DNA of 56,763 bases from assembly GCA_964364285.1 (NCBI GenBank), contig CAYIKZ010000004.1, positions 1 through 56,763 of the forward strand, in the 5' to 3' direction. The notes below the pieces were generated by a model. The model was not told where the DNA came from. It saw nothing but the letters and a program-made list of their open reading frames with translations, and ran no database searches. Position numbers and translations under genes: made by a program. Of the stretch, positions 4,925 to 27,157 are shown one piece after another. Position 1 is the first letter of the stretch. Each line of letters opens with the position of its first letter. The DNA comes from an uncultured Candidatus Saccharibacteria bacterium (lineage in GTDB: Bacteria; Patescibacteriota; Doudnabacteria; UBA920; VMFF01).

Positions 4925-6421
4925 TTAAGCTTTGAAACCTTCTTTAAATTCTTTAATTGCTTTTACAATTGTTTCCTCAGTTTCTTCTGTCCAGTTACCA
5001 GAATTAATCTCATCTAAGACATAACTACCTTGAGTAGCCAAGAAGTTATGGAACTGTTCTTCAAACTGATGAACTTTTTCAACAGGAACATCGGAAAGAT
5101 GTCCATTAGTTACTGCGTAAATTATGGCAACCTGGTTAGCAATTGACATTGGTCTGTATTGACCCTGTTTCAAAACCTCTGCGGTTCTAGAACCAAGATC
5201 TAACTGTTTCTTTGTGGTTTCATCAAGATCAGAACCAAATTGTGCGAAAGCAGCTAATTCTCTGTACTGTGCCATTGTTAAACGAAGTTTGCCAGCAACT
5301 TTCTTCATCCCCTTGGTTTGCGCTGAAGAACCAACACGGGAAACAGAAATACCAACGTTAACAGCAGGACGTGTTCCTTGATAGAACAAGTCTGATTCAA
5401 GGAAGATTTGTCCGTCTGTAATGGAAATTACATTTGTAGGAATATATGCGGAAACATCTCCAGCCTGAGTTTCAATGATTGGAAGGGCTGTAATTGAACC
5501 ACCACCATACTCTTTGTTTCTTCTAGCAGCTCTTTCAAGTAAGCGAGAGTGCAAGTAGAAAACATCTCCAGGATATGCTTCGCGTCCTGGTGGACGTCTT
5601 AGCAACAAAGAGATTTCTCTGTAAGCAACAGCGTGTTTTGAAAGATCGTCATAGACAATCAAAACGTCTTTGCCTTGATCCATGAAATATTCAGCCATGG
5701 CAACACCAGAGTAAGGGGCAATATATGACATTGCAGCTTGTTCTGAAGCACCGGCTGAGACAACAATTGTATAATCCATAGCACCACGTTCTTGTAATTC
5801 TGCAACAATCTTTGCAACCTTAGATTCTTTCTGACTGATAGCAACGTAGATACAAATGACATCTTGTCCTTTTTGGTTGATGATTGTATCAATAGCAATT
5901 GCGGTTTTGCCAGTTTGACGATCTCCAATGATCAATTCTCTTTGTCCTCTTCCAATTGGAATCATGGAATCAATTGCCTTAATACCAGTTTGCAATGGAA
6001 CAGAAACTCCTTGTCTTGTTATAACACCGGGAGCAACTTTTTCAACATTGTAATATGTATCAGCTTTGATACTTGGTTTACCGTCTTTTGCCTCCCCTAA
6101 TGCAGAAACAACTCGTCCAATTAAATCAGCGCTTACAGGGACTGAAAGAATTTTACCTGTTGCTCTAACTGTTTGCCCTTGTTTAACCTTAGTTGCATCC
6201 CCGAAAATGATCGCACCAATTGAATTGTTTTCTAGGTTTAAAACAACGCCTGATATTCCGCCTTCAAACTCAAGCATTTCAGATGCTGCGACCTGTGAAA
6301 GTCCAGAAACACGTGCAATACCATCAGCAATTTCTAAAACAATGCCAACTTTTTCAACCTTGACCTCTGGACCAAAGTTGGAAATTTTTTCTTTAAGTTG
6401 TTGTATTACTTTATCGTTCAT
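4925..6421 (-). CDS. atpA: F1 ATP synthase alpha subunit
   Basis: Walker A GDRQTGKT plus alpha signature sequences. Confidence 0.98.
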
Positions 6422-6425
6422 ATTG

Positions 6426-6809
6426 TTATTTGCTAATTGCCTTTCTCAATTGTTTTAAGCTGTTCTTTATGGATCCGTCTATCAAAGTGTCATCTACTCT
6501 TACTACCACTCCACCGATTATATCTGCGTCAATCTTTTCTTTAACTTCTACTTTGTCTCCTACGATCTTGTTTAAGTGTTCTAAAATCTCTCTTGATCTG
6601 TGTGGTTGCGCTGTAGTTATCTCCACCTGCTTTATACCCTTTCCTTCTGCTTCTATTCTTTTGTATTGTTCCTCAATTTGATCGTAGAGTTTTAAATCAC
6701 CATTTTGAGAAAGTACAGCCACCAAGTTATCCAATATTTTTTCGTGATCCTCAGACTTACTTTCGTTTAACGCGTCATAGAGGGCCTGAGCGTATTGTTC
6801 TGCTTTCAT
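6426..6809 (-). CDS. atpH: F1 ATP synthase delta (OSCP) subunit, short form (127 aa)
   Basis: C-terminal [22 protein letters not shown] motif and its position between atpF and atpA. Confidence 0.8.
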
Positions 6810-6810
6810 A

Positions 6811-7365
6811 CTATCTCAGTCCTTTCAGACTCTCCTTTATTAATTCAACATCTCTTTTAGGATCAAGCTTTTCCCTTAAAATCTTTTCAGTAGCTGCGAC
6901 AATTAAAGTTGCTGCTTGTTCTCTTACTTCAACTAGAAGCTTTTCCTTTTCACTTGCTAATTCTTTTTTAGATTGTTCCAAAACCTTCTCAGCGCCTTTT
7001 TTAGCTTCTGCAATTATTTGTTCTTTATTCAACTCTGCTACTTTTTGGGCCTTTAATACAATTTCATTTGCTTCCCCTCTTATCTTTTTCATCTCAGCTT
7101 TGCGGTATTGTTCAACCTGTTTTAAGCGATCCTGTATTTCCTGTGATTCCTTAATAGACTTCTCAATCTTTGCAGTTCTTTGTTCTAGCTTTGTTCCCAA
7201 TGGTTTAAAAACCCATCTCCACAAAACTATCAATACAATTGCAAAGTTAAATAACTGGGCAATGAAAAGTTTCCAATCAAGACCAAACAAAGCAGTAACA
7301 CTGCTGTTTGTTGCTTCCGCAGCATGAGCCACAGGAATTAAAATTTGTAATATTTCGTTCATCAT
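6811..7365 (-). CDS. atpF: Fo ATP synthase b subunit
   Basis: One N-terminal TM segment followed by a long charged helix. I moved the start to the ATG at 7365 (MMNEILQ..) because the 247-aa track ORF would overlap atpE. Confidence 0.85.
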   Translation of the reverse strand: MMNEILQILIPVAHAAEATNSSVTALFGLDWKLFIAQLFNFAIVLIVLWRWVFKPLGTKLEQRTAKIEKSIKESQEIQDRLKQVEQYRKAEMKKIRGEANEIVLKAQKVAELNKEQIIAEAKKGAEKVLEQSKKELASEKEKLLVEVREQAATLIVAATEKILREKLDPKRDVELIKESLKGLR

Positions 7366-7423
7366 ATTGTTTTTAATGTATCCAAACCCCGGGCAACAAT
7401 AATGCGCCCAGAGTCTGTTTGCA

Positions 7424-7687
<264 letters not shown>

Positions 7688-7761
7688 TTAATCGTTGGTG
7701 AGTATTTAGTTAACTAATTCATTTTCTCTTTGCGACTTCAAAAAGAAAATGATCTAAGTAA

Positions 7762-8580
7762 CTAATGAACAGCTTTTTCTTTTACATGACCATGAACTGG
7801 CAATGTAGCAACTGTAATGTATGTTAAGACAAGCAATGAGAAAACTGTTGCCTGAATAAGGCCAACAAGAAGCTCTAAGGCCAAGAATGGCAATGGCACA
7901 ATGTACGCAACAATACTTGCCAACACTGTTAACAAAACCTCACCAGCAAAGATGTTTCCAAAAAGTCTTAAAGACAAAGAAACCATTTTTGCAGCCTCTG
8001 ATATTATCTCAAGAAAACCAACCATAAACTCAATGAAAACAGTAAAGATTGTCATTACTTTCTTGCTTTTGAAAGCATGCCAAACATCAGACAATTTAAT
8101 AAACTTGTTAAAGTACTTAAAGAAACCAATTGTAAACACCCCAATTATATGCGAAAGAACAACACCGCTAATTGCCATAGCTAGTGTTAAATTTAAATCA
8201 GTGTTTGCTGATCGGAACAAAGGGATAAATTCGAGTTCTCCGTGGACAACCTTATTAATACCAATAGAACCAATACCTGGTAATATACCAAGCCAGTTAG
8301 AAATTAAGATGAACAAGAACAAAGAACCAATTAAAGGAAGAAACTTTGATGACTTCTTTCTATCACCAGTAACTTGATCAAAATATCCAAGTAAAGTTTC
8401 GATTATACTTTCAAAAAAGTTCTGAATACCTCTTGGAACATCTTTAACACTTCTCTGAACAAAAAAACCAACGACAATGAACAAAAAAACTGTCAAAGTT
8501 GAATTGATGTATGTGTTGGTAACAGTAAAACTACCGATATTAAATATTGGTTCTGCCGCAAGCGGCGGTAATGCTAGCAT
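7762..8580 (-). CDS. atpB: Fo ATP synthase a subunit
   Basis: Polytopic membrane protein with the conserved LSLRLFGNIFAGE motif. Confidence 0.95.
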   Translation of the reverse strand: MLALPPLAAEPIFNIGSFTVTNTYINSTLTVFLFIVVGFFVQRSVKDVPRGIQNFFESIIETLLGYFDQVTGDRKKSSKFLPLIGSLFLFILISNWLGILPGIGSIGINKVVHGELEFIPLFRSANTDLNLTLAMAISGVVLSHIIGVFTIGFFKYFNKFIKLSDVWHAFKSKKVMTIFTVFIEFMVGFLEIISEAAKMVSLSLRLFGNIFAGEVLLTVLASIVAYIVPLPFLALELLVGLIQATVFSLLVLTYITVATLPVHGHVKEKAVH

Positions 8581-8864
8581 TATTTCTTCTCTGTATCCTT
8601 TCCTACAATCCTAGCTGCTTCTTTCAGCTTGTCTATGAATGCTTTAAATCTAGAGTACATCCAAAAACTAGTTAATATGATTGCCAGGGCAATTCCGATG
8701 TATATATAATAGCCGGTACCATACTTTGTATCCAGCCATTTACCACCTAATCCAAAAAGAACTATGGGTAGTGCAATGATGAAACCAAGCTCAAAAGCAA
8801 CGCTCATAACTCTTGCGCTTTCATAGCTGTAATTCCTATTCGGTTTTTTATCGGTTTCTGCCAT
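8580..8864 (-). CDS. AtpZ/AtpI-like small membrane protein at the head of the atp operon
   Basis: Two TM segments and a position immediately upstream of atpB, with a 1-nt overlap. Start set at the ATG at 8864 (MAETDKK..). Confidence 0.6.
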   Translation of the reverse strand: MAETDKKPNRNYSYESARVMSVAFELGFIIALPIVLFGLGGKWLDTKYGTGYYIYIGIALAIILTSFWMYSRFKAFIDKLKEAARIVGKDTEKK

Positions 8865-8974
8865 ATGGTCTAAAATTGACGAAAATAGTTTAACAGAAAA
8901 ACACGGTTTCCGCAAGACTGCCATTTTTCAGAGAAGACCAAGGGCAAAAAAGCCAACAAACGAGCTTTTTTGTA

Positions 8975-9489
8975 TAAAAGCAAAGAGGAGTCAGGTGGTA
9001 CTGGCTCCTCTGTCTTGCTTGCGCTGTTCGGCACCCTAGCATCGCTCCGGATGCGTTATACCCTCGCGTGGGTGTCTAATCCAGGCAATTGGACCATCGG
9101 TCTAAGCCGACAATCAGACGGGCAGGGTAGCACACTTCTCGCCAGACCCTGTTTTAGAACCATAACAGCAGGCATAAGGCAGGCTGAAACGCGAGATCAC
9201 TCTCGTCGCTCATACTGCTCCTACCTTCTTCCCCTCCTTTTTCTTATGCAAACGAAAACCACAAGGAAGTTCGCCCCTCTAGTAAAAACCGACGAACAAT
9301 GGAGCCACAGAGGCTCACCAACCCTCACCGGGTCTTTACGCCACCGCCCGAACTCACGGACGGGAGTGGACACCATGGTGATTCGACTAGGTGGATGTTC
9401 GTCTACATCCCCTAACCGGGTGAGGTCATTGCCTAGAGGCCCTCCTACGAGAACCTACAGACCGCGCGGCGCGTATCGCACCTAGCGGT
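8975..9489 (-). ncRNA. candidate large (~515 nt) structured RNA of unassigned class
   Basis: G+C-rich: 58% and 65% in the two 60-nt windows I counted. No minus-strand ORF of 60 aa or more. An extended -10 TGCTATCAT lies at 9496-9504. There are many helices, several with G-U pairs or a GNRA loop only in the minus sense. The segment ends in a terminal hairpin AGAGGAG/CUCCUCU plus U tract (8971-9011). The ends are approximate. Confidence 0.5.
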
Positions 9490-9519
9490 GAAAATATGAT
9501 AGCACAAATGGATATATAT

Positions 9520-9543
9520 AAACAAAAACCGTCTTCACGGTTT
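9520..9543 (-). terminator. intrinsic terminator after tRNA-Thr
   Basis: On the minus strand: AAACCG-TGAAGA-CGGTTT followed by TTTGTTT, beginning 8 nt after the tRNA 3' end. Confidence 0.7.
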
Positions 9544-9550
9544 CTATTAC

Positions 9551-9626
9551 TGGAGCCGGCTGTCGGACTTGAACCGACCACCTGCGGTTTACGATACCGC
9601 TGCTCTACCAGATGAGCTAAGCCGGC
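9551..9626 (-). tRNA. tRNA-Thr (CGT)
   Basis: Reverse complement: GCCGGCT-TA-GCTC-ATCTGGTA-GAGC-A-GCGGT-ATCGTAA-ACCGC-AGGTG-GTCGG-TTCAAGT-CCGAC-AGCCGGC-T-CCA. Confidence 0.95.
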
Positions 9627-10020
9627 AATACTGCTCGGGCGCGCATTGTTTAACTAACCAATGCGAGCCCGTCTTGCTACCACCCGAAGGAACTCAGACG
9701 CTTGGGCGAAGGATCAACTGGACGGAACCGCCGCTGGTACACCCTCTCAGCGCGAACATGGTTCACATCCAGGCCTTTTGCCTCCTTCCCAGGCTTTGGC
9801 ACATGGGCCGCGCATTTCACTCGCCACATGAAATTGGAGAAGAACAGAACTCCACCGACCCAAACCATGCCCTCTCCAGGATGCATGCGCTGCGCTGCCT
9901 TCAGGATGGACTTACGCCGCGCAATGTGCTTCTTGTCGATGTTCCGCTCGGGCTTCTTCGTGTAATACACTGCTATCCCCTTGTCCGTGTGGTCAACCTG
10001 AATCCTGCGATTGATGATGG
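9627..10020 (-). other. G+C-rich ~390-nt segment transcribed toward tRNA-Thr; holds a GTG-initiated 97-codon basic ORF (9677-9970) of foreign composition. Gene, pseudogene or RNA is unresolved.
   Basis: 60% G+C in the 9721-9780 sample. An AAGGGG Shine-Dalgarno sits 6 nt before the GTG at 9970. Third codon positions are G/C-rich in that frame. A 12-bp hairpin with one mismatch (9636-9671) abuts the tRNA 5' end. I recognised no family. Confidence 0.35.
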
Positions 10021-10021
10021 T

Positions 10022-10050
10022 ATGTTAAGGGGAAAATGAAATGAAGTCAA
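10022..10050 (-). promoter_or_regulatory. sigma70-type promoter facing the G+C-rich segment and tRNA-Thr
   Basis: On the minus strand: TTGACT (10050-10045), a 17-nt spacer, then TAACAT (10027-10022). Confidence 0.6.
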
Positions 10051-10051
10051 T

Positions 10052-10090
10052 AAAACCACTAGTTGTTGCTAGTGGTTTATCTTTTATTAT
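10052..10090. terminator. bidirectional intrinsic terminator downstream of the 387-aa gene
   Basis: AAACCACTAG-ttgttg-CTAGTGGTTT with T-rich tracts on both sides. Confidence 0.7.
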
Positions 10091-10130
10091 CTGGAACAAA
10101 ATCAACTTTTTGAACGGGTGTTTTTTATTT

Positions 10131-11294
10131 CTATTTTTTAAGATCACCTTGTCTTATCTCGCTTGCTTTATTGTTTAATCTTTCCCATAGATGATACATC
10201 ACAGCATTTTGAGGTTCTTGATAGGCGTCGTGCCATTGGGCATATTTCCCAACCATTCGCTTTTCCAGACCGTCATATCTTTTTATATTTGCAAATTTCT
10301 CTATACGCCCTCGCATTCTGCTGGGTAACACTGCCCACAAATTAATGTTCTTGTCAGGAAATTTGCCCTTGAGTTCACCTTCTTTTTTGGTAGCCTCAAC
10401 CGCTAACATTATATACGCTTCTTCTATAGAATCAGCTTCTTGTCGCAAACCATCTATTTCTATTTGGGCTGTCTGCATATCATCTAAAGACTTTTCAGCT
10501 TGCAAAGCTATTTCCCTGTTTTTAACTACTATGTAATCAATTGCGGCTTTTTCTTTACCAGCAAATAATCCCAACCTTTTTCTTTGCGCAGCTAAACGTT
10601 CAAGAAATCCTGGTTCCTCAAAAGTATTTAAAACACTCATCGTATCACCTGGTTTTAGTGCTCTGTTAGCTTCTGCAACAATTCCTCCTAAAGCACTCCT
10701 GGTACGCTGTAACATTTGCTCCGCTTTTTCTTTTCTTTCATTAAGGTTTACTTTCTTGCTTACATAGTCCGTCATTCTATAGAAAACATCGTCAGCTTTT
10801 TTTTCTTGATCTGCTTCTAATCTCTTCATTTCTCCTGTCAAATCTCTTTCCTCGTGCTCAGCATAAGCGTCTTTTAAAACTTCGTCTTTCACATCTGGAA
10901 CGCTCATTATAGCGTCATATTTCTGTGATGACTCTTCTCTCTGTTGTGTCAGAGCATATATTAACTCTCTTAAGGACGTGAGATCTGCTTTATCTTTGGG
11001 GTCTGTTAATAAACCTTGTTGTTCTTGGGCTTCAAAAAAAGTCAAAGTTTTTTTAGCCTCTTCAAGCATTGATACCAAACGCTTATCTTCAGCAACCATT
11101 GCTTCACGATCGCCAAGTTGTTTTTTGATGGTTGATGTTTTTTGACGTTTAATTTCTTCAAAACGAGCCTCTAAATCAGCTCTTTGTTTTTTAAGGTCTT
11201 CTAGTGATAAGACTGGCGTTTCCGGTCTTTGTTCTTGTCCTTCTACAGGACCTTCGGCTCCCAGTGTACCCTCCCCTGGTGGTAACTTAGTCAT
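10131..11294 (-). CDS. hypothetical coiled-coil-rich protein (387 aa)
   Basis: Long ORF rich in E/K/Q/L heptad-like sequence. No motif recognised. It has its own promoter. Confidence 0.6.
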   Translation of the reverse strand: MTKLPPGEGTLGAEGPVEGQEQRPETPVLSLEDLKKQRADLEARFEEIKRQKTSTIKKQLGDREAMVAEDKRLVSMLEEAKKTLTFFEAQEQQGLLTDPKDKADLTSLRELIYALTQQREESSQKYDAIMSVPDVKDEVLKDAYAEHEERDLTGEMKRLEADQEKKADDVFYRMTDYVSKKVNLNERKEKAEQMLQRTRSALGGIVAEANRALKPGDTMSVLNTFEEPGFLERLAAQRKRLGLFAGKEKAAIDYIVVKNREIALQAEKSLDDMQTAQIEIDGLRQEADSIEEAYIMLAVEATKKEGELKGKFPDKNINLWAVLPSRMRGRIEKFANIKRYDGLEKRMVGKYAQWHDAYQEPQNAVMYHLWERLNNKASEIRQGDLKK

Positions 11295-11333
11295 AAATGT
11301 AACGCTTTTAATACTATAAACAAACCTATCTAA

Positions 11334-11362
11334 ATCATACGCTCAAGAACAAATTTTTGCAA
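11334..11362 (-). promoter_or_regulatory. sigma70-type promoter of the 387-aa gene
   Basis: On the minus strand: TTGCAA, a 17-nt spacer, then TATGAT. Confidence 0.55.
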
Positions 11363-11390
11363 TTTTAATTAAAAGGAGGAAACACTTTGT

Positions 11391-12377
11391 CTAATGTTCA
11401 AGAATAGTTAATTCTGCTTTTTCTCCGTCTACATTCATAGCAACGACTCCTCCTATCGGAAAAGTAATTTTAGGATCGCTATGACCAAAATCCACATTTG
11501 CAATTATTGGAATTTGCGTTAATTGCTTTTTAGATTTAACTATCTGTCTTAATAGGTCTATAGTCATATTACTTTCTTTTTGAAACCTCCCAAAAACAAT
11601 TCCCTTAACATCTACGAAACCTGGTTGCTGGATCAAGGATTGTAAATCTCTATCAAAATGATGAGGTTGAGATTCAGAATCATCTTCAATAAATAGTATT
11701 GAACCTTTCAAGTCGGGCATATATTCTGTCCCTTGCAATAGATTAAAGGTACAGAGATTACCTCCTAGAAGAGTCCCTTCAGCATTGCCTTCGTTTAATA
11801 CCCAAAAACCTTCGTTACGTAGAGGATTCCTTTTATCTTGATTTCTGTACCACTCATCATCGCTCCATTCATTGCTTGGAGTTATTACAAATTTTTCAGA
11901 ACTCATCAAACACTTTTTAAAAAAATCCAAAGTATAATCAAAATTTAGTTTTTGTCCAAAGGTTGAATAATGTGGTCCAGAGTATGTAACTAAACCTGTT
12001 TTAGTAAAAAATGAATTATTCAAAACTGTGATATCAGAGAAACCACAGAAAACTTTGGGATTATTTTTAACAATATCCCAATCTATTGAGTCTAATAGTT
12101 GATTACTATTAAAACCTCCAATTACAGTAAAAATAGCCTTTACATCTTTGTCTAAAAAGGCACTGTGTAAATCAGAAATTCTCGATTCTATAGATGAGGA
12201 GTCGAAATCATTTTTTTCCTCGACATGCTCTCCAAATGTTAAAATCAACCCTAATTCGTCGAAACGAGATTTTGCAATATCTCTCAGCTCTTGACTAATA
12301 ATCGCTAATGAACGAGCTGGAGCGACGATCCTAACAGTATCGCCTTTTTTCAATTTATTTGGATATATCTTTTGCAT
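11391..12377 (-). CDS. LD-carboxypeptidase (peptidase S66, LdcA/MccF family)
   Basis: GDTVRIVAPA.. N-terminus, the nucleophile elbow GFSDIT, and a C-terminal FGH..P motif. Confidence 0.8.
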   Translation of the reverse strand: MQKIYPNKLKKGDTVRIVAPARSLAIISQELRDIAKSRFDELGLILTFGEHVEEKNDFDSSSIESRISDLHSAFLDKDVKAIFTVIGGFNSNQLLDSIDWDIVKNNPKVFCGFSDITVLNNSFFTKTGLVTYSGPHYSTFGQKLNFDYTLDFFKKCLMSSEKFVITPSNEWSDDEWYRNQDKRNPLRNEGFWVLNEGNAEGTLLGGNLCTFNLLQGTEYMPDLKGSILFIEDDSESQPHHFDRDLQSLIQQPGFVDVKGIVFGRFQKESNMTIDLLRQIVKSKKQLTQIPIIANVDFGHSDPKITFPIGGVVAMNVDGEKAELTILEH

Positions 12378-12399
12378 TATTGTATATTTCAGTTATTTT

Positions 12400-12473
12400 T
12401 GGAGCGGGTAACGGGAATCGAACCCGTATCTCAGCCTTGGGAAGGCCGCATTCTACCACTGAACCATACCCGC
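12400..12473 (-). tRNA. tRNA-Gly (CCC)
   Basis: Reverse complement: GCGGGTA-TG-GTTC-AGTGGTA-GAAT-G-CGGCC-TTCCCAA-GGCTG-..-ACGGG-TTCGATT-CCCGT-TACCCGC-T-CCA. Confidence 0.95.
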
Positions 12474-12490
12474 AACTTACAAAATGTATT

Positions 12491-13348
12491 TTACCTTACA
12501 AGACGCAGTATCGTATAGCTTGATTTTTGAGCAGCAAGCCATTGTTCAAAGTCCCCTGTTTTTATAAATATCTGCTGAACTTTGTAACGCTTTGAGTCTT
12601 TTGGTCCTTTTGAATCACTAGCAAGCACTTTGAATATATGAATACCATATCTAGAATATACCGTATGTACTTTTGTATCTTTCGCTGATTCAATCTCTCT
12701 GAAATATTCTGGAATTAGATCTTTGTAACTAACATATCCTAAGTCTCCACCAAGCTGAGCGCTTAATGCATCTTCACTGTAAGCTATTGCTACATCATCA
12801 AACCCGCTTCCTGAATCCAGCTTAGACATGATTAAGTCATATTTTGAAAAAGCATCTTTGTTTAACTTTCTGTTTGAAGCAAGCCAAACAGAAAGTTTTG
12901 TTTTAACAACATCAGGATATACAAACCAATCCTTAAACTGACTCTCCGAAAGTTTGTATTCTTTTGCTAGCTCTGATTTTTGTGTTGTCTCTTTAAGCAA
13001 TGTGTACGCTGAATCTACATCTTTACTTGAAACTGTAACTCCTTTAGCAAAAAGAAGACTGTATGCAATCTTGTTTAAAACGAGTTGGTTGATGAGTAAC
13101 TCTTTCTGTTCCGTGCTTAATTTCGTTTTCTTTACTTCTTCAGAAACATCAAAACGCGTAAAATATTCTCCTAGAGTTACCACTTTAGAGTTAACAAACA
13201 TTGCTGGTAATGGAATATATCTAAAAAGTTTTTTTCCCAAGACTGAAGAAACTGGCAAGATGTATGCTTGTAATATGAAAAGAAGAATCAAACCTAAAAT
13301 TAAAAACCAAATTCTTTTTTTTGTTTTTGCTTTTATTTTCTTGAACAT
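12491..13348 (-). CDS. membrane-anchored parvulin-type peptidyl-prolyl isomerase (SurA/PrsA-like)
   Basis: N-terminal TM segment and a C-terminal PpiC signature (GGDLGYVS...GIHIFKV). Confidence 0.75.
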   Translation of the reverse strand: MFKKIKAKTKKRIWFLILGLILLFILQAYILPVSSVLGKKLFRYIPLPAMFVNSKVVTLGEYFTRFDVSEEVKKTKLSTEQKELLINQLVLNKIAYSLLFAKGVTVSSKDVDSAYTLLKETTQKSELAKEYKLSESQFKDWFVYPDVVKTKLSVWLASNRKLNKDAFSKYDLIMSKLDSGSGFDDVAIAYSEDALSAQLGGDLGYVSYKDLIPEYFREIESAKDTKVHTVYSRYGIHIFKVLASDSKGPKDSKRYKVQQIFIKTGDFEQWLAAQKSSYTILRLVR

Positions 13349-13350
13349 GT

Positions 13351-13746
13351 TTAAGGATTACCCCCTCTTAGGAAATATGTCACCCATTTATTAAAATTAG
13401 ATTGATTTGCATTTTCTTGTCTTATTGCCTCTTCTTGATTAACAACCTCTGTTTGTGGACTTAGAGCTGAGAAAGAATAAACAACTTCTCCTTCTTTTTT
13501 GAGGTTCAACTGTTGTCTTGCTGCTTGTTCTTTGTAACTATCTGTCTTTAAATATGCAATGAAGTTTTTAACCTCTTCGTTATTTTTTTGAATCTGGTCT
13601 GCTTGTTTAGTTAAAGCATCGATCTCTTTTTGAATACTATGTCTGTTTCTAAACTGGCCGAAACTTACAACTAAAAGAAAAAGCAGAAATATTGATCCGC
13701 CTATTACAAACGCCCTACTCTGGATTATATCTTTAAACTTAGGCAT
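13351..13746 (-). CDS. septum formation initiator family protein (FtsB/DivIC-like)
   Basis: One TM segment followed by a coiled coil and the ...QQLNLKKEGEVVY motif. Confidence 0.65.
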   Translation of the reverse strand: MPKFKDIIQSRAFVIGGSIFLLFLLVVSFGQFRNRHSIQKEIDALTKQADQIQKNNEEVKNFIAYLKTDSYKEQAARQQLNLKKEGEVVYSFSALSPQTEVVNQEEAIRQENANQSNFNKWVTYFLRGGNP

Positions 13747-13749
13747 AAC

Positions 13750-14313
13750 TTAAATGCTTCTTTTAGGCTTTATAAAAACCTTAGCAAACTCAGGTTGAGT
13801 GTATGCAGTCTTAGTGCTTGAATTTGCACCATACTCTAAATGGACCTTCCAGATATAGTCTTTAACCTTTGAAGGATTAGGAATTGCTCTCAAGATTAAA
13901 GAATGATCTAATCCAACAACCTCAACTAAAACATCTCCGTAATGAAAGAGGGTTGAAGAAACTCCTGTGGTTCTAAAACTAACATTTAAAATACGATCAA
14001 GAGGTGTTTCAACAACGGTTTTTTTAAACAACCCTGTATGAACAATGTGTAAAAGTCTTTTCGAAGTAACTATATATACATTAACAGACCAAATTACAAA
14101 AGCATGCAAAGCAAACATTGCGACAAGAACTGTCCATCCAATAAAGATCTGAGCATGGGTGGTTGTTGAAAATATGAAGTCATACTTTAAACCAAGGAAC
14201 CAAGGAATGAAAATAAAAAGAAAAATCTGGAAAACTTTAGGCACAAGTGTAATCTCGTGCTTTCTATAAACCGCTAATAGCTGTTCATCACTATGAAGTT
14301 GGTGTGAAAACAT
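13750..14313 (-). CDS. membrane protein with bacterial PH (YdbT-like) domain
   Basis: Two TM segments followed by a ~80-aa bPH-like C-terminal domain. The assignment is tentative. Confidence 0.5.
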   Translation of the reverse strand: MFSHQLHSDEQLLAVYRKHEITLVPKVFQIFLFIFIPWFLGLKYDFIFSTTTHAQIFIGWTVLVAMFALHAFVIWSVNVYIVTSKRLLHIVHTGLFKKTVVETPLDRILNVSFRTTGVSSTLFHYGDVLVEVVGLDHSLILRAIPNPSKVKDYIWKVHLEYGANSSTKTAYTQPEFAKVFIKPKRSI

Positions 14314-25682: not shown

Positions 25683-25742
25683 AATATGTTTTTACGCTTT
25701 TTATTATACCACAAAACGAGCAATATCCTAAATCAAAAGCGC

Positions 25743-25771
25743 TTGCTACCCAAATCCATTTTCTGTAGAAT
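25743..25771 (+). promoter_or_regulatory. near-consensus promoter of the 84-aa G+C-rich ORF
   Basis: TTGCTA (25743-25748), a 17-nt spacer, then TAGAAT (25766-25771). A GGAGG Shine-Dalgarno lies at 25789-25793. Confidence 0.6.
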
Positions 25772-25797
25772 ACAGGCACACCTGAAACGGAGGAACA

Positions 25798-26052
25798 ATG
25801 GCTGGAGTAAGCATATCAGTGGAAACCGTTGAAAAGAAGCCAGCGCATATCGAAACCGTGATCGGCGTCGTCGCGCTCGTGATTGCAGCGCTCGTTGCAG
25901 CTTCGATCCTCGCGATCAACATCAATGCTGCTCACGCAATCAAGGAAGTCGGCTTCTGGACCGGGATGGCCTACCGGGTCATCACCTTCGCTTCGTGGCT
26001 TCTGGCTGCGGCCCTTGCCGGGATCGGCGCGCAGCTCGTTCGGGACAACTAG
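25798..26052 (+). CDS. 84-aa two-TM Ala/Val-rich membrane protein of foreign (58% G+C) composition
   Basis: I counted 149 G+C in 255 nt. It has a strong promoter, a GGAGG Shine-Dalgarno and an ATG. The two hydrophobic segments are VIGVVALVIAALVAASILAI and ITFASWLLAAALAGIGA. Confidence 0.6.
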   Translation: MAGVSISVETVEKKPAHIETVIGVVALVIAALVAASILAININAAHAIKEVGFWTGMAYRVITFASWLLAAALAGIGAQLVRDN

Positions 26053-26082
26053 AACCAAACCGCAACAACCCTCCGCAACAAA

Positions 26083-26116
26083 GCAAAACCCCGATGACAA
26101 AAATGATCATCGGGGT
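26083..26116 (-). terminator. intrinsic terminator after the DD-carboxypeptidase gene (hairpin shared with the 84-aa ORF)
   Basis: CCCCGATGA/TCATCGGGG 9-bp stem. The minus strand continues TTTTGCTTTG. Confidence 0.65.
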
Positions 26117-26143
26117 AAGTGGCAATCAACTGGTTGTCGCTTT

Positions 26144-27157
26144 TTAGTTCCAACTAAAATTATCAAACACGTATTTAATTACTTCTAGTGTGCTGTCGTT
26201 TCTGTCTGGTGTTCCTAAAACAATTGCAATAACTTTGTTACCATTATCATTTACTGCTTCTACAATCATGTTGCCCTGAGCTTTCGCTGTATACCCTGTT
26301 TTTATGGATTTAATATTTTTGTATTCAAAAACTAAATCATTGCTGTTTTTAATCTTGTATGTTTTTCCTAATAATGATTCGAAGGAATAACTTGCTTGCT
26401 GACTCCAAATCTGATCATACGGTAATATATCAATCCCATAGTTTACTAACTTCCTTAAATCTTTTGCTGTTGAATAGTTTGCTTCTGAATCAAAACCAAC
26501 TGGATTACTAAAGTGAGTATTTTCCATTCCAAGTTCTTTTGCTTTTGCATTCATCTTTAAAACAAAATCTATTTTGTTTGGAAAATGATTTGCAAGAGTT
26601 AAAGCAGCATCATTTGCAGAACCAAGAAGCATTGCTTTAAGTAAGTCTTCAGGATTAACTTTGTCTCCAGGAACTAAACCAAGATACGGACTAACTTTCA
26701 AAACATCTTCTTGAGTTATAGTTATTGATTCTTTAAAGCTTGGATCTTCAGAAGCAACAATTGCTGTCATGAATTTTGTTAAAGAAGCGATTGCAACCTG
26801 ATCATCAATGTTTTTCTGATACAAGATTGTCTGAACAACAGGATCATAGACTAAAAAAGCTTTTGCCTTAACATCAGGTACTACAGAATAGTTAGTTTGT
26901 TTAACAGCCTTCTCATCATTAACATCGCCTCCTCTTGGTGGAGTAGCAATTGGTCCTTGAAGTGGGGTAGAAAAATTAAAATCCTGACTTGTATCAGGAG
27001 ATGTTACGGTTGTTGTAGCACCCAAAACCTTTCCAGTCTTTGCTTGTGGTATTTGCCAATTGAAAGCAAACAACAGCAATGCAACTGCAGGGATCAGGAT
27101 TGATAGATTTTGCGCTATTTTCCTTGGCACTTTTGTTTTTGTTTTAAATCCTTGCAA
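26144..27157 (-). CDS. D-alanyl-D-alanine carboxypeptidase (peptidase S11, PBP5/6-like)
   Basis: SxxK (ASLTK), SxN (SAN) and KTG (KTGYT) motifs plus an N-terminal anchor. Confidence 0.85.
   Translation of the reverse strand: MQGFKTKTKVPRKIAQNLSILIPAVALLLFAFNWQIPQAKTGKVLGATTTVTSPDTSQDFNFSTPLQGPIATPPRGGDVNDEKAVKQTNYSVVPDVKAKAFLVYDPVVQTILYQKNIDDQVAIASLTKFMTAIVASEDPSFKESITITQEDVLKVSPYLGLVPGDKVNPEDLLKAMLLGSANDAALTLANHFPNKIDFVLKMNAKAKELGMENTHFSNPVGFDSEANYSTAKDLRKLVNYGIDILPYDQIWSQQASYSFESLLGKTYKIKNSNDLVFEYKNIKSIKTGYTAKAQGNMIVEAVNDNGNKVIAIVLGTPDRNDSTLEVIKYVFDNFSWN

Follow-up and report, generated by a model that had tools for sequence, protein, structure and literature searches.

In a 56,763-nt stretch of DNA from an uncultured Candidatus Saccharibacteria bacterium (Doudnabacteria, lineage UBA920, VMFF01; GenBank assembly GCA_964364285.1, contig CAYIKZ010000004.1; hereafter the window), a G+C-rich segment lying at positions 9627–10021 directly ahead of a tRNA-Thr gene is a genuine, conserved gene for a very basic protein of an unnamed family. 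Our overall reading, to which we give a probability of about 0.75, is that this 97-codon gene and tRNA-Thr(CGU) are transcribed as a single unit on the minus strand, and that its G+C-rich third codon positions (the G+C content of which is hereafter called GC3) are a maintained property of a whole class of genes in this otherwise A+T-rich genome. The window corresponds to contig C4 of the source genome G000 (691,620 bases, 20 contigs, 98.65% complete, 37.9% G+C), the DNA of which occurs in groundwater metagenomes from several studies. The original prediction, made from the letters of the window, had described this locus as a G+C-rich insert of foreign composition and had proposed three origins for it: a horizontally acquired small gene co-transcribed with a tRNA, the relic of a larger gene, or a second structured RNA or tRNA precursor leader. 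The elements on which it was built were all recovered (Table 1), including the near-consensus promoter, the G+C-rich stretch before tRNA-Thr, the GTG codon behind AAGGGG opening 97 codons up to a TAG (with an identical translation), and a hairpin with a 12-bp stem and one mismatch ending 9 nt short of the tRNA 5′ end. The three proposed origins fared less evenly.

The coding nature of the open reading frame (ORF) is carried by comparison with related genomes. Each of the four remaining genus genomes retains the segment and its tRNA, at 68–93% nucleotide identity; outside the genus the tRNA alone finds a match. One frame is open in all five (97, 97, 97, 104 and 104 codons), with start codons falling at a single aligned column (GTG, GTG, ATG, TTG and TTG), each behind a purine-rich Shine-Dalgarno (SD) sequence, and with a Trp codon followed by a stop at the end of every copy. 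Over the conserved first 66–69 codons, differences at the first, second and third codon positions stand at 3:1:11 for the closest pair and at 19:9:36 and 16:10:30, for example, for distant pairs, a further comparison of orthologues giving 10:9:27. The ratio of nonsynonymous to synonymous substitution rates (dN/dS, NG86) ranges from 0.15 to 0.35 among the five orthologues, for synonymous distances (dS) of 0.25 to above 2, and the insertions and deletions in the conserved part measure 3 and 9 nt, i.e. multiples of three. The leader of one genome (G004) carries a 1-nt indel that shifts the frame upstream of the start codon, indicating that the leader is not translated in frame. With its frame kept, its third-position bias, a dN/dS below 1 and homologues elsewhere, the ORF is, on this comparative evidence, a genuine gene under purifying selection.

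A longer ORF of 156 amino acids lies antisense to this gene on the plus strand (9569–10039) and is likewise free of stops in each of the five genomes. The first position of its codons falls on the third position of the sense frame (9569 and 9968 both leave a remainder of 2 on division by 3), and the scarcity of A at the sense third positions means that the antisense frame can hardly hold a stop codon. We rejected it as a gene, since it represents the shadow of the GC3-rich sense codons and would also cross the tRNA antisense.

The juxtaposition of G+C-rich and A+T-rich sequences is a property of the organism rather than of its assembly. In independent groundwater runs, Logan contigs ran from the A+T-rich upstream gene into the G+C-rich ORF, with depths of 15.6 and 16.4, and others linked the tRNA with the segment downstream of it and with the flank of the ATP synthase (atp) genes, with depths of 10.5 and 10.9. 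Such equal depths and contiguity across independent runs indicate that the mosaic is the real DNA of one organism and not an assembly chimera, these contigs speaking at this locus to DNA contiguity only. Within one groundwater sample (run X7), a second allele covering positions 9841–9977 was observed beside the G000 type, with 10 differing positions of which seven are synonymous third-position changes; this second-strain allele is of the G004 type, and is thus not independent of the comparison with G004.

The gene and tRNA-Thr(CGU) are most probably co-transcribed in a mixed operon of the secG-leuU type, judging from the signals that surround them. Both lie on the same strand, a consensus scan of the minus strand from 10022 to 9627 detected no promoter-like or terminator-like site, the hairpin ahead of the tRNA lacks a U-run, and a single terminator stands after the tRNA, which is the layout of this operon type. 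The absence of signals between ORF and tRNA points to one unit composed of a promoter, a 5′ hairpin, the ORF, a 3′ hairpin, tRNA-Thr(CGU) and a terminator, and the terminator found just ahead of the promoter suggests that this unit starts on its own. Beyond the tRNA, the hairpin and U-run of the terminator are kept in all four genomes that cover the site, and a U-A pair is replaced by C-G, a compensatory substitution. The 3′ stem-loop retains 12–14 pairs in all five genomes (−19.7 to −26.3 kcal/mol), and six of its pairs are altered on both sides with pairing retained. In the leader, all six pairs of a putative hairpin (UCAAUC/GGUUGA) are retained in the five genomes, with a different loop in G001. 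The 30-nt leader itself occurs as a single copy in the genome at up to 3 mismatches, and the idea of a repeated genomic motif was abandoned on that count.

From this layout we infer the following course of expression. The near-consensus promoter would fire and the short 5′ hairpin and SD sequence would lead into the ORF, one transcript of ~490 nt spanning the ORF and tRNA-Thr(CGU) before the intrinsic terminator ends the unit. RNase P, the RNA of which is encoded elsewhere in G000 (173.5 bits), would then cut at 9626/9627, the tRNA 5′ end, 9 nt past the stem-loop. The released mRNA would thereby keep the stem-loop near its new 3′ end, which could shield it from 3′ exonucleases, and the same stem-loop may also insulate the folding of the tRNA from the G+C-rich mRNA.

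Such a gene order has a precedent in Escherichia coli, where a Rho-independent terminator is common to the protein gene secG and the tRNA gene leuU, which lie at a distance of 14 nt, and RNase P cuts the two apart, the secG mRNA then having a half-life under 30 s (Mohanty & Kushner 2008, PMC2241853). As in that operon, a gene of about 100 codons is followed here by a single tRNA on the same strand and by one terminator after the tRNA. Unlike it, the spacer measures 50 nt instead of 14 and holds a covarying hairpin of 12–14 bp that ends 9 nt short of the tRNA and is expected to stabilise the released mRNA; moreover, the protein has no relationship to SecG, and the processing is here a predicted one. 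The layout, which had been called unusual, is hence uncommon but already known for a protein gene and a tRNA, and the operon is in itself of modest interest, although its covarying hairpin, ending 9 nt short of the predicted RNase P cut, provides a natural case of what a 3′ stem-loop does to an mRNA that tRNA processing sets free. A second kind of arrangement is found in the thrU-tyrU-glyT-thrT-tufB operon of E. coli, in which the tRNAs stand ahead of the mRNA under a shared promoter and a core translation factor is encoded. The two have in common that a tRNA and a coding sequence under one promoter tie protein expression to tRNA transcription; they differ in that the mRNA precedes a single tRNA in the window and that its protein is patchily distributed. 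The parts that appear worth following are the protein family and the persistent class of G+C-rich genes to which its gene belongs.

The product is a protein of 97 amino acids with an isoelectric point (pI) of 10.9, a net charge of +15 and a C-terminal Trp, and, as had been anticipated, no recognised family accounts for it: searches against Pfam and NCBIfam gave no match at E ≤ 10. A length-blind HMMER profile search against 1.84 billion cluster representatives nevertheless gathered 96 relatives at E ≤ 1e-3, 11 of which reached 1e-10, and all but two of the 96 measure ~56–158 amino acids. Across the resulting 97 family members, Pfam returned three single-member matches only, to three different families; ten members gave no match in PHROGs or PADLOC, a PDB sequence profile search gave none at E ≤ 1, and the ESM Atlas provided no usable match. 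A word-index protein search yielded a single relative, and the protein encoded in the window was itself absent from the result, which suggests that gene callers may miss this family.

Its members share a clear signature, with the consensus RKxLxKxAxxxxPG, WxGGxLYF and VPGVxxVPKPGxxAxG. Seven positions (R19, W37, G39, G40, L42, V51 and G66) are each conserved in at least 94% of members, and three others (F44, P58 and K59) in 86–89% each. The protein reads as a basic helix (RRKxLKKxAxRxxPG), a beta-hairpin (WxGGxLYF), a VPGVxxVPKPGxxAxG segment and a disordered Arg/Ser/Pro-rich tail, at the end of which a Trp is frequent. All 97 aligned members have a pI above 9 (median pI 10.8, median net charge +11), and 33 of them end in Trp, which accounts for 2.8% of residues overall, and 50 in an aromatic residue. 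In a subfamily of ~140 amino acids, a zinc-ribbon-like module (CxxC...CxxC) was observed past the conserved core and before the terminal Trp, several of these proteins ending in ...RRRTSSW (L067:2492-2908, L073:523-954 and L074:2492-2929, and also P0007, P0045, P0062, P0089 and P0091).

An AlphaFold model built from six sequences was poor (pLDDT 64), while the AF2 model derived from the 97-sequence alignment reached a pLDDT of 84 overall and 91–98 for residues 11–70, with a helix at 14–29, a beta-hairpin at 35–44 and a short helix at 66–71. Foldseek comparison of both the shallow and the deep models with the PDB returned nothing similar (best E-value 2.2), a wide VIA-align search against 48,161 chains found no similar fold (best Z 3.2) and the predicted viral structures of BFVD yielded no fold match (best E-value 0.25), keeping in mind that searches of this kind can overlook a small alpha+beta core and that the lack of a match is no proof of a new fold. 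In size (~100 amino acids), pI (~11), compact core and disordered Arg/Ser/Pro-rich tail, and in the zinc-ribbon-like extension of some relatives, the family resembles the small basic nucleic-acid-binding proteins of ribosomes and nucleoids, and the protein perhaps binds nucleic acid as an RNA-binding or ribosome-associated component, an assignment that we regard as tentative. Unlike these proteins, it shares no detected sequence or fold similarity with solved representatives, and its occurrence in 8 of 67 genera of the class speaks against a core component; we know of no counterpart among them to its conserved C-terminal Trp. Beyond the operon layout, the interest lies in an unnamed family of basic proteins of ~100 amino acids, with a confidently predicted core to which the libraries searched offered nothing similar and with a Trp that recurs at the C-terminus.

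Homologues were found in 12 of 146 Doudnabacteria genomes, belonging to 8 of the 67 genera of this class, which consists of a single order, and an even sample of 401 genomes across the phylum gave none beyond the window's own genus at E ≤ 1e-4. As far as searched, the family is confined to Doudnabacteria-like groundwater organisms. At the metagenomic loci, the neighbours are mostly unnamed ORFs, together with peptidase S51, IS200-like transposase, peptide deformylase-like and tRNA methyltransferase-like genes, and no recurring theme among them hints at a function. A linkage to tRNA genes as a trait of the family was considered and dismissed, a tRNA lying within 2.5 kb at 4 of 11 metagenomic loci for an expectation of ~0.3 per locus, i.e. 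without enrichment. A search of the literature on Doudnabacteria, and on GC3 with horizontal gene transfer in bacteria of the Candidate Phyla Radiation, found nothing relevant.

The composition of the gene is what first set it apart. Region 9627–10021 has 55.7% G+C, and 200-nt windows within it reach 0.575–0.59 against 0.30–0.40 in the flanks and 0.379 in the genome. GC3 amounts to 0.69 in the ORF and 0.62–0.70 in its four orthologues, against 0.24–0.30 in five neighbouring genes, and distant homologues from other genera show GC3 values of 0.56–0.65 amid backgrounds of 0.37–0.49 G+C. Synonymous sites are saturated between most species pairs (dS above 1), so neutral foreign sequence should have drifted to the host composition, which the GC3 of this gene has not. 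Nor does it stand alone in G000, where we counted 64 islands of at least 52% G+C and, in a crude set of 669 ORFs, 45 with a GC3 of at least 0.5 (26.6 kb in total) beside a main mode of 0.25–0.35. This class includes an OMP decarboxylase (pyrF), a phosphoribosyltransferase, an SDR and a Big_1 protein, and two of its other genes, pyrF and a 391-aa ORF, have orthologues that keep a GC3 of 0.67–0.69 at 55–79% amino acid identity. Judged by these comparisons, G+C-rich third positions are a stable property of a class of ~45 genes and not the mark of a recent insert. The composition is atypical, as in a recent islet, yet the gene occupies the same locus in five genomes of the genus, and no integrase was seen among the ORFs of positions 6000–14000. 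A class with GC3 persisting at 0.65–0.70 in a genome near 0.28 argues against a plain annotation as foreign DNA, and raises the question of selection or biased gene conversion in ultra-small genomes. The GC3-rich ORFs (0.5–0.75) were observed to stand singly or paired among A+T-rich genes, for instance at C2:40703-42135, C7:8876-10051, C8:18139-18777 and C18:7961-8995, and at 25738–26173 of the window.

Codon usage in this class offers one curiosity. Of the Thr codons of the G+C-rich class, 31% are ACG, which tRNA-Thr(CGU) reads, against 6% in the remaining genes, and this tRNA is the sole CGU isoacceptor among the 40 tRNAs detected in G000. Any tie between ACG usage and the fusion of gene and tRNA is speculation. 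More broadly, one may imagine that the GC3 of the ~45 genes is kept by selection or biased gene conversion, that the coupling to tRNA-Thr(CGU) is a codon-supply link, and that the protein is a nucleic-acid binder of a new fold docking through its Trp, a combination that we consider a long shot; if its codon-supply part were true, the G+C-rich gene set would depend on C34 tRNAs. As observations in their own right, ACG, CCG, CGG and AAG are several-fold commoner in the G+C-rich gene class, no tRNA-Thr(GGU) appears among the 40 tRNAs detected, and the C34 tRNAs kept in G000 are CAA, CAG, CAC, CTT, CTG, CGT, CCC, CGC, CCT, CGG, CGA and CTC.

Two of the origins originally proposed would deprive the ORF of its status as a gene. 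A non-coding structured RNA or long tRNA precursor leader, in which the ORF is an accident of G+C-rich sequence, is highly improbable, even if structural RNAs typically stand out as G+C-rich where the genome is A+T-rich, if a truly structured RNA of 515 nt lies directly downstream, if long ORFs are open on both strands, and if the large RNAs ROOL and GOLLD offer the same picture of a G+C-rich block beside a tRNA in an A+T-rich genome. The 396-nt segment 9627–10022 shows no excess folding over dinucleotide shuffles (z = −0.76, 20 of 100 shuffles being as good), RNAalifold detected no structure shared by the five orthologues within the ORF body (covariation term +1.92, i.e. penalising), and clean compensatory pairs in the segment alignment are restricted to the terminal 3′ hairpin. 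The Rfam scan proposed with the original prediction, run with Rfam 15 (ROOL, GOLLD and leaders included) at the gathering score and at E ≤ 10, returned the tRNA as the only match. Unlike ROOL and GOLLD, the segment thus carries a clear coding signature without an Rfam match or excess structure, its codon-periodic substitutions and low dN/dS being unexpected for an RNA and its long antisense ORF the shadow described above; by folding and covariation, it is not a structured RNA outside its terminal hairpin. An origin as a pseudogene, or as what is left of a larger gene (integrase or transposase), acquired from a high-G+C donor beside a tRNA attachment site, is in turn barely credible. tRNA genes are common integration sites, the composition looks foreign and the region between tRNA-Gly and tRNA-Thr varies among species, but the ORF is intact in five species with conserved start and stop and under purifying selection, and the profile search, blind to length, returned relatives that are nearly all of ~100 amino acids. 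The homology search suggested for a transposase or integrase remnant gave no Pfam, PHROG or PADLOC match to mobile-element families, the tRNA is intact, and no partial copy of it was seen beside the unit in the sequence read, on which no repeat search was run.

Other explanations accept the gene and differ on its history or its partner. A mobile small gene, borne by a phage or another element, may have landed recently before the tRNA, its G+C content mirroring that of the donor. Its patchy spread (12 of 146 genomes, 8 of 67 genera, and no match beyond the genus in the phylum sample), a G+C content of ~0.53–0.60 regardless of the host background and one metagenomic copy adjoining an IS200-like transposase all agree with such a transfer. 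We nonetheless hold it to be unlikely, since the gene lies in the same place in five species separated by dS above 1, which places its residence before their divergence, and its GC3 has not decayed; furthermore, the other G+C-rich genes (pyrF and the 391-aa ORF) behave alike, no PHROG or BFVD fold match was obtained and the neighbours are not consistently phage-like. Of the proposal of a horizontally acquired small gene co-transcribed with a tRNA, the gene and its co-transcription are therefore supported, by purifying selection, by the existence of a family and by the lack of internal signals, while the acquisition itself is weakly so: with synteny in five of five species at saturated synonymous sites and a composition common to ~45 ORFs, any transfer must be old. 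The protein could also be the dedicated partner of the neighbouring 515-nt RNA (8975–9489, minus strand), both forming a ribonucleoprotein encoded around the tRNA. This G+C-rich segment, which the original prediction rightly described as structured, folds better than shuffles (z = −3.93), has no Rfam match, and is conserved across the genus, where many of its indels have lengths not divisible by three. ORF, tRNA and large RNA lie side by side in G000, G001, G002 and G003 (they fall on separate contigs in G004), and a very basic protein with a disordered tail would suit such a role. Against it, the large RNA is served by a separate promoter and terminator, the distant protein homologues are stand-alone genes, and adjacency within one genus amounts to a single evolutionary observation. 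BLAST with the RNA across the class matched in the genus only, and a weak covariance model of its 162-nt core (1.59 effective sequences) found no match in five genomes with distant protein homologues, results that weigh neither for nor against a partnership. We consider this partnership very unlikely.

Several observations weigh against the preferred reading, a basic-protein gene of a maintained GC3-rich class expressed in one unit with tRNA-Thr(CGU). The start codon in G000 is GTG and its SD sequence merely AAGGGG, and the leader hairpin shows no covariation across the five genomes. The consensus-pattern scan may miss a non-canonical internal tRNA promoter or atypical signals, and no RNA runs containing the locus were listed, so that transcription, co-transcription, processing and translation are predicted ones. 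Outside the genus, the gene stands alone with its own promoter, SD sequence and terminator and without an adjoining tRNA, which makes the link to tRNA-Thr specific to the genus and not a trait of the family. Finally, no family name, fold match or informative neighbours are at hand to indicate a function.

In its wider setting, the unit follows, on the minus strand, a gene at 10131–11294 closed by its terminator, and continues from the promoter through the G+C-rich segment and tRNA-Thr(CGU) to the terminator past the tRNA; a second promoter, the 515-nt RNA-like segment and the ATP synthase operon come next. The features of the unit are given in Table 1.

Table 1. Features of the predicted transcription unit and of its upstream boundary, in window coordinates
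Feature	Position	Strand	Remarks
Terminator-like palindrome	10053..10078	.	11-bp stem then T-run (pattern scan); closes the upstream gene
Sigma-70-type promoter, TTGACT-17-TAACAT	10022..10050	-	Pattern scan; both hexamers invariant in 5 genus genomes
Putative 5′ untranslated region hairpin, 6 bp	9993..10014	-	Within the nearly invariant 30-nt leader; predicted structure
Shine-Dalgarno sequence AAGGGG	9977..9982	-	6 nt ahead of the start codon; purine-rich counterpart in 5/5 genomes
97-aa basic protein gene	9677..9970	-	GTG start; last codon of the ORF (9970..9680) encodes Trp; TAG stop at 9679-9677
Stem-loop, 12–14 bp, without U-run	9636..9671	-	Between stop codon and tRNA; conserved, with compensatory changes
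tRNA-Thr(CGU), CCA encoded	9551..9626	-	Covariance-model match, 61.3 bits
Intrinsic terminator, AAACCGU-GAAG-ACGGUUU then U-run	9521..9543	-	Conserved hairpin and U-run; not listed by the pattern scan

Upstream of the unit, a tRNA-Gly(CCC) lies ~0.5–0.9 kb from the small ORF in G002 and G003 and 2.4 kb from it in G000, from which it follows that the interval between the two tRNAs is variable. In G000, the space below this tRNA-Gly(CCC) (window 10131–12473, compared with L003 and L004) is occupied by a 387-aa coiled-coil orphan and an LdcA-like gene.

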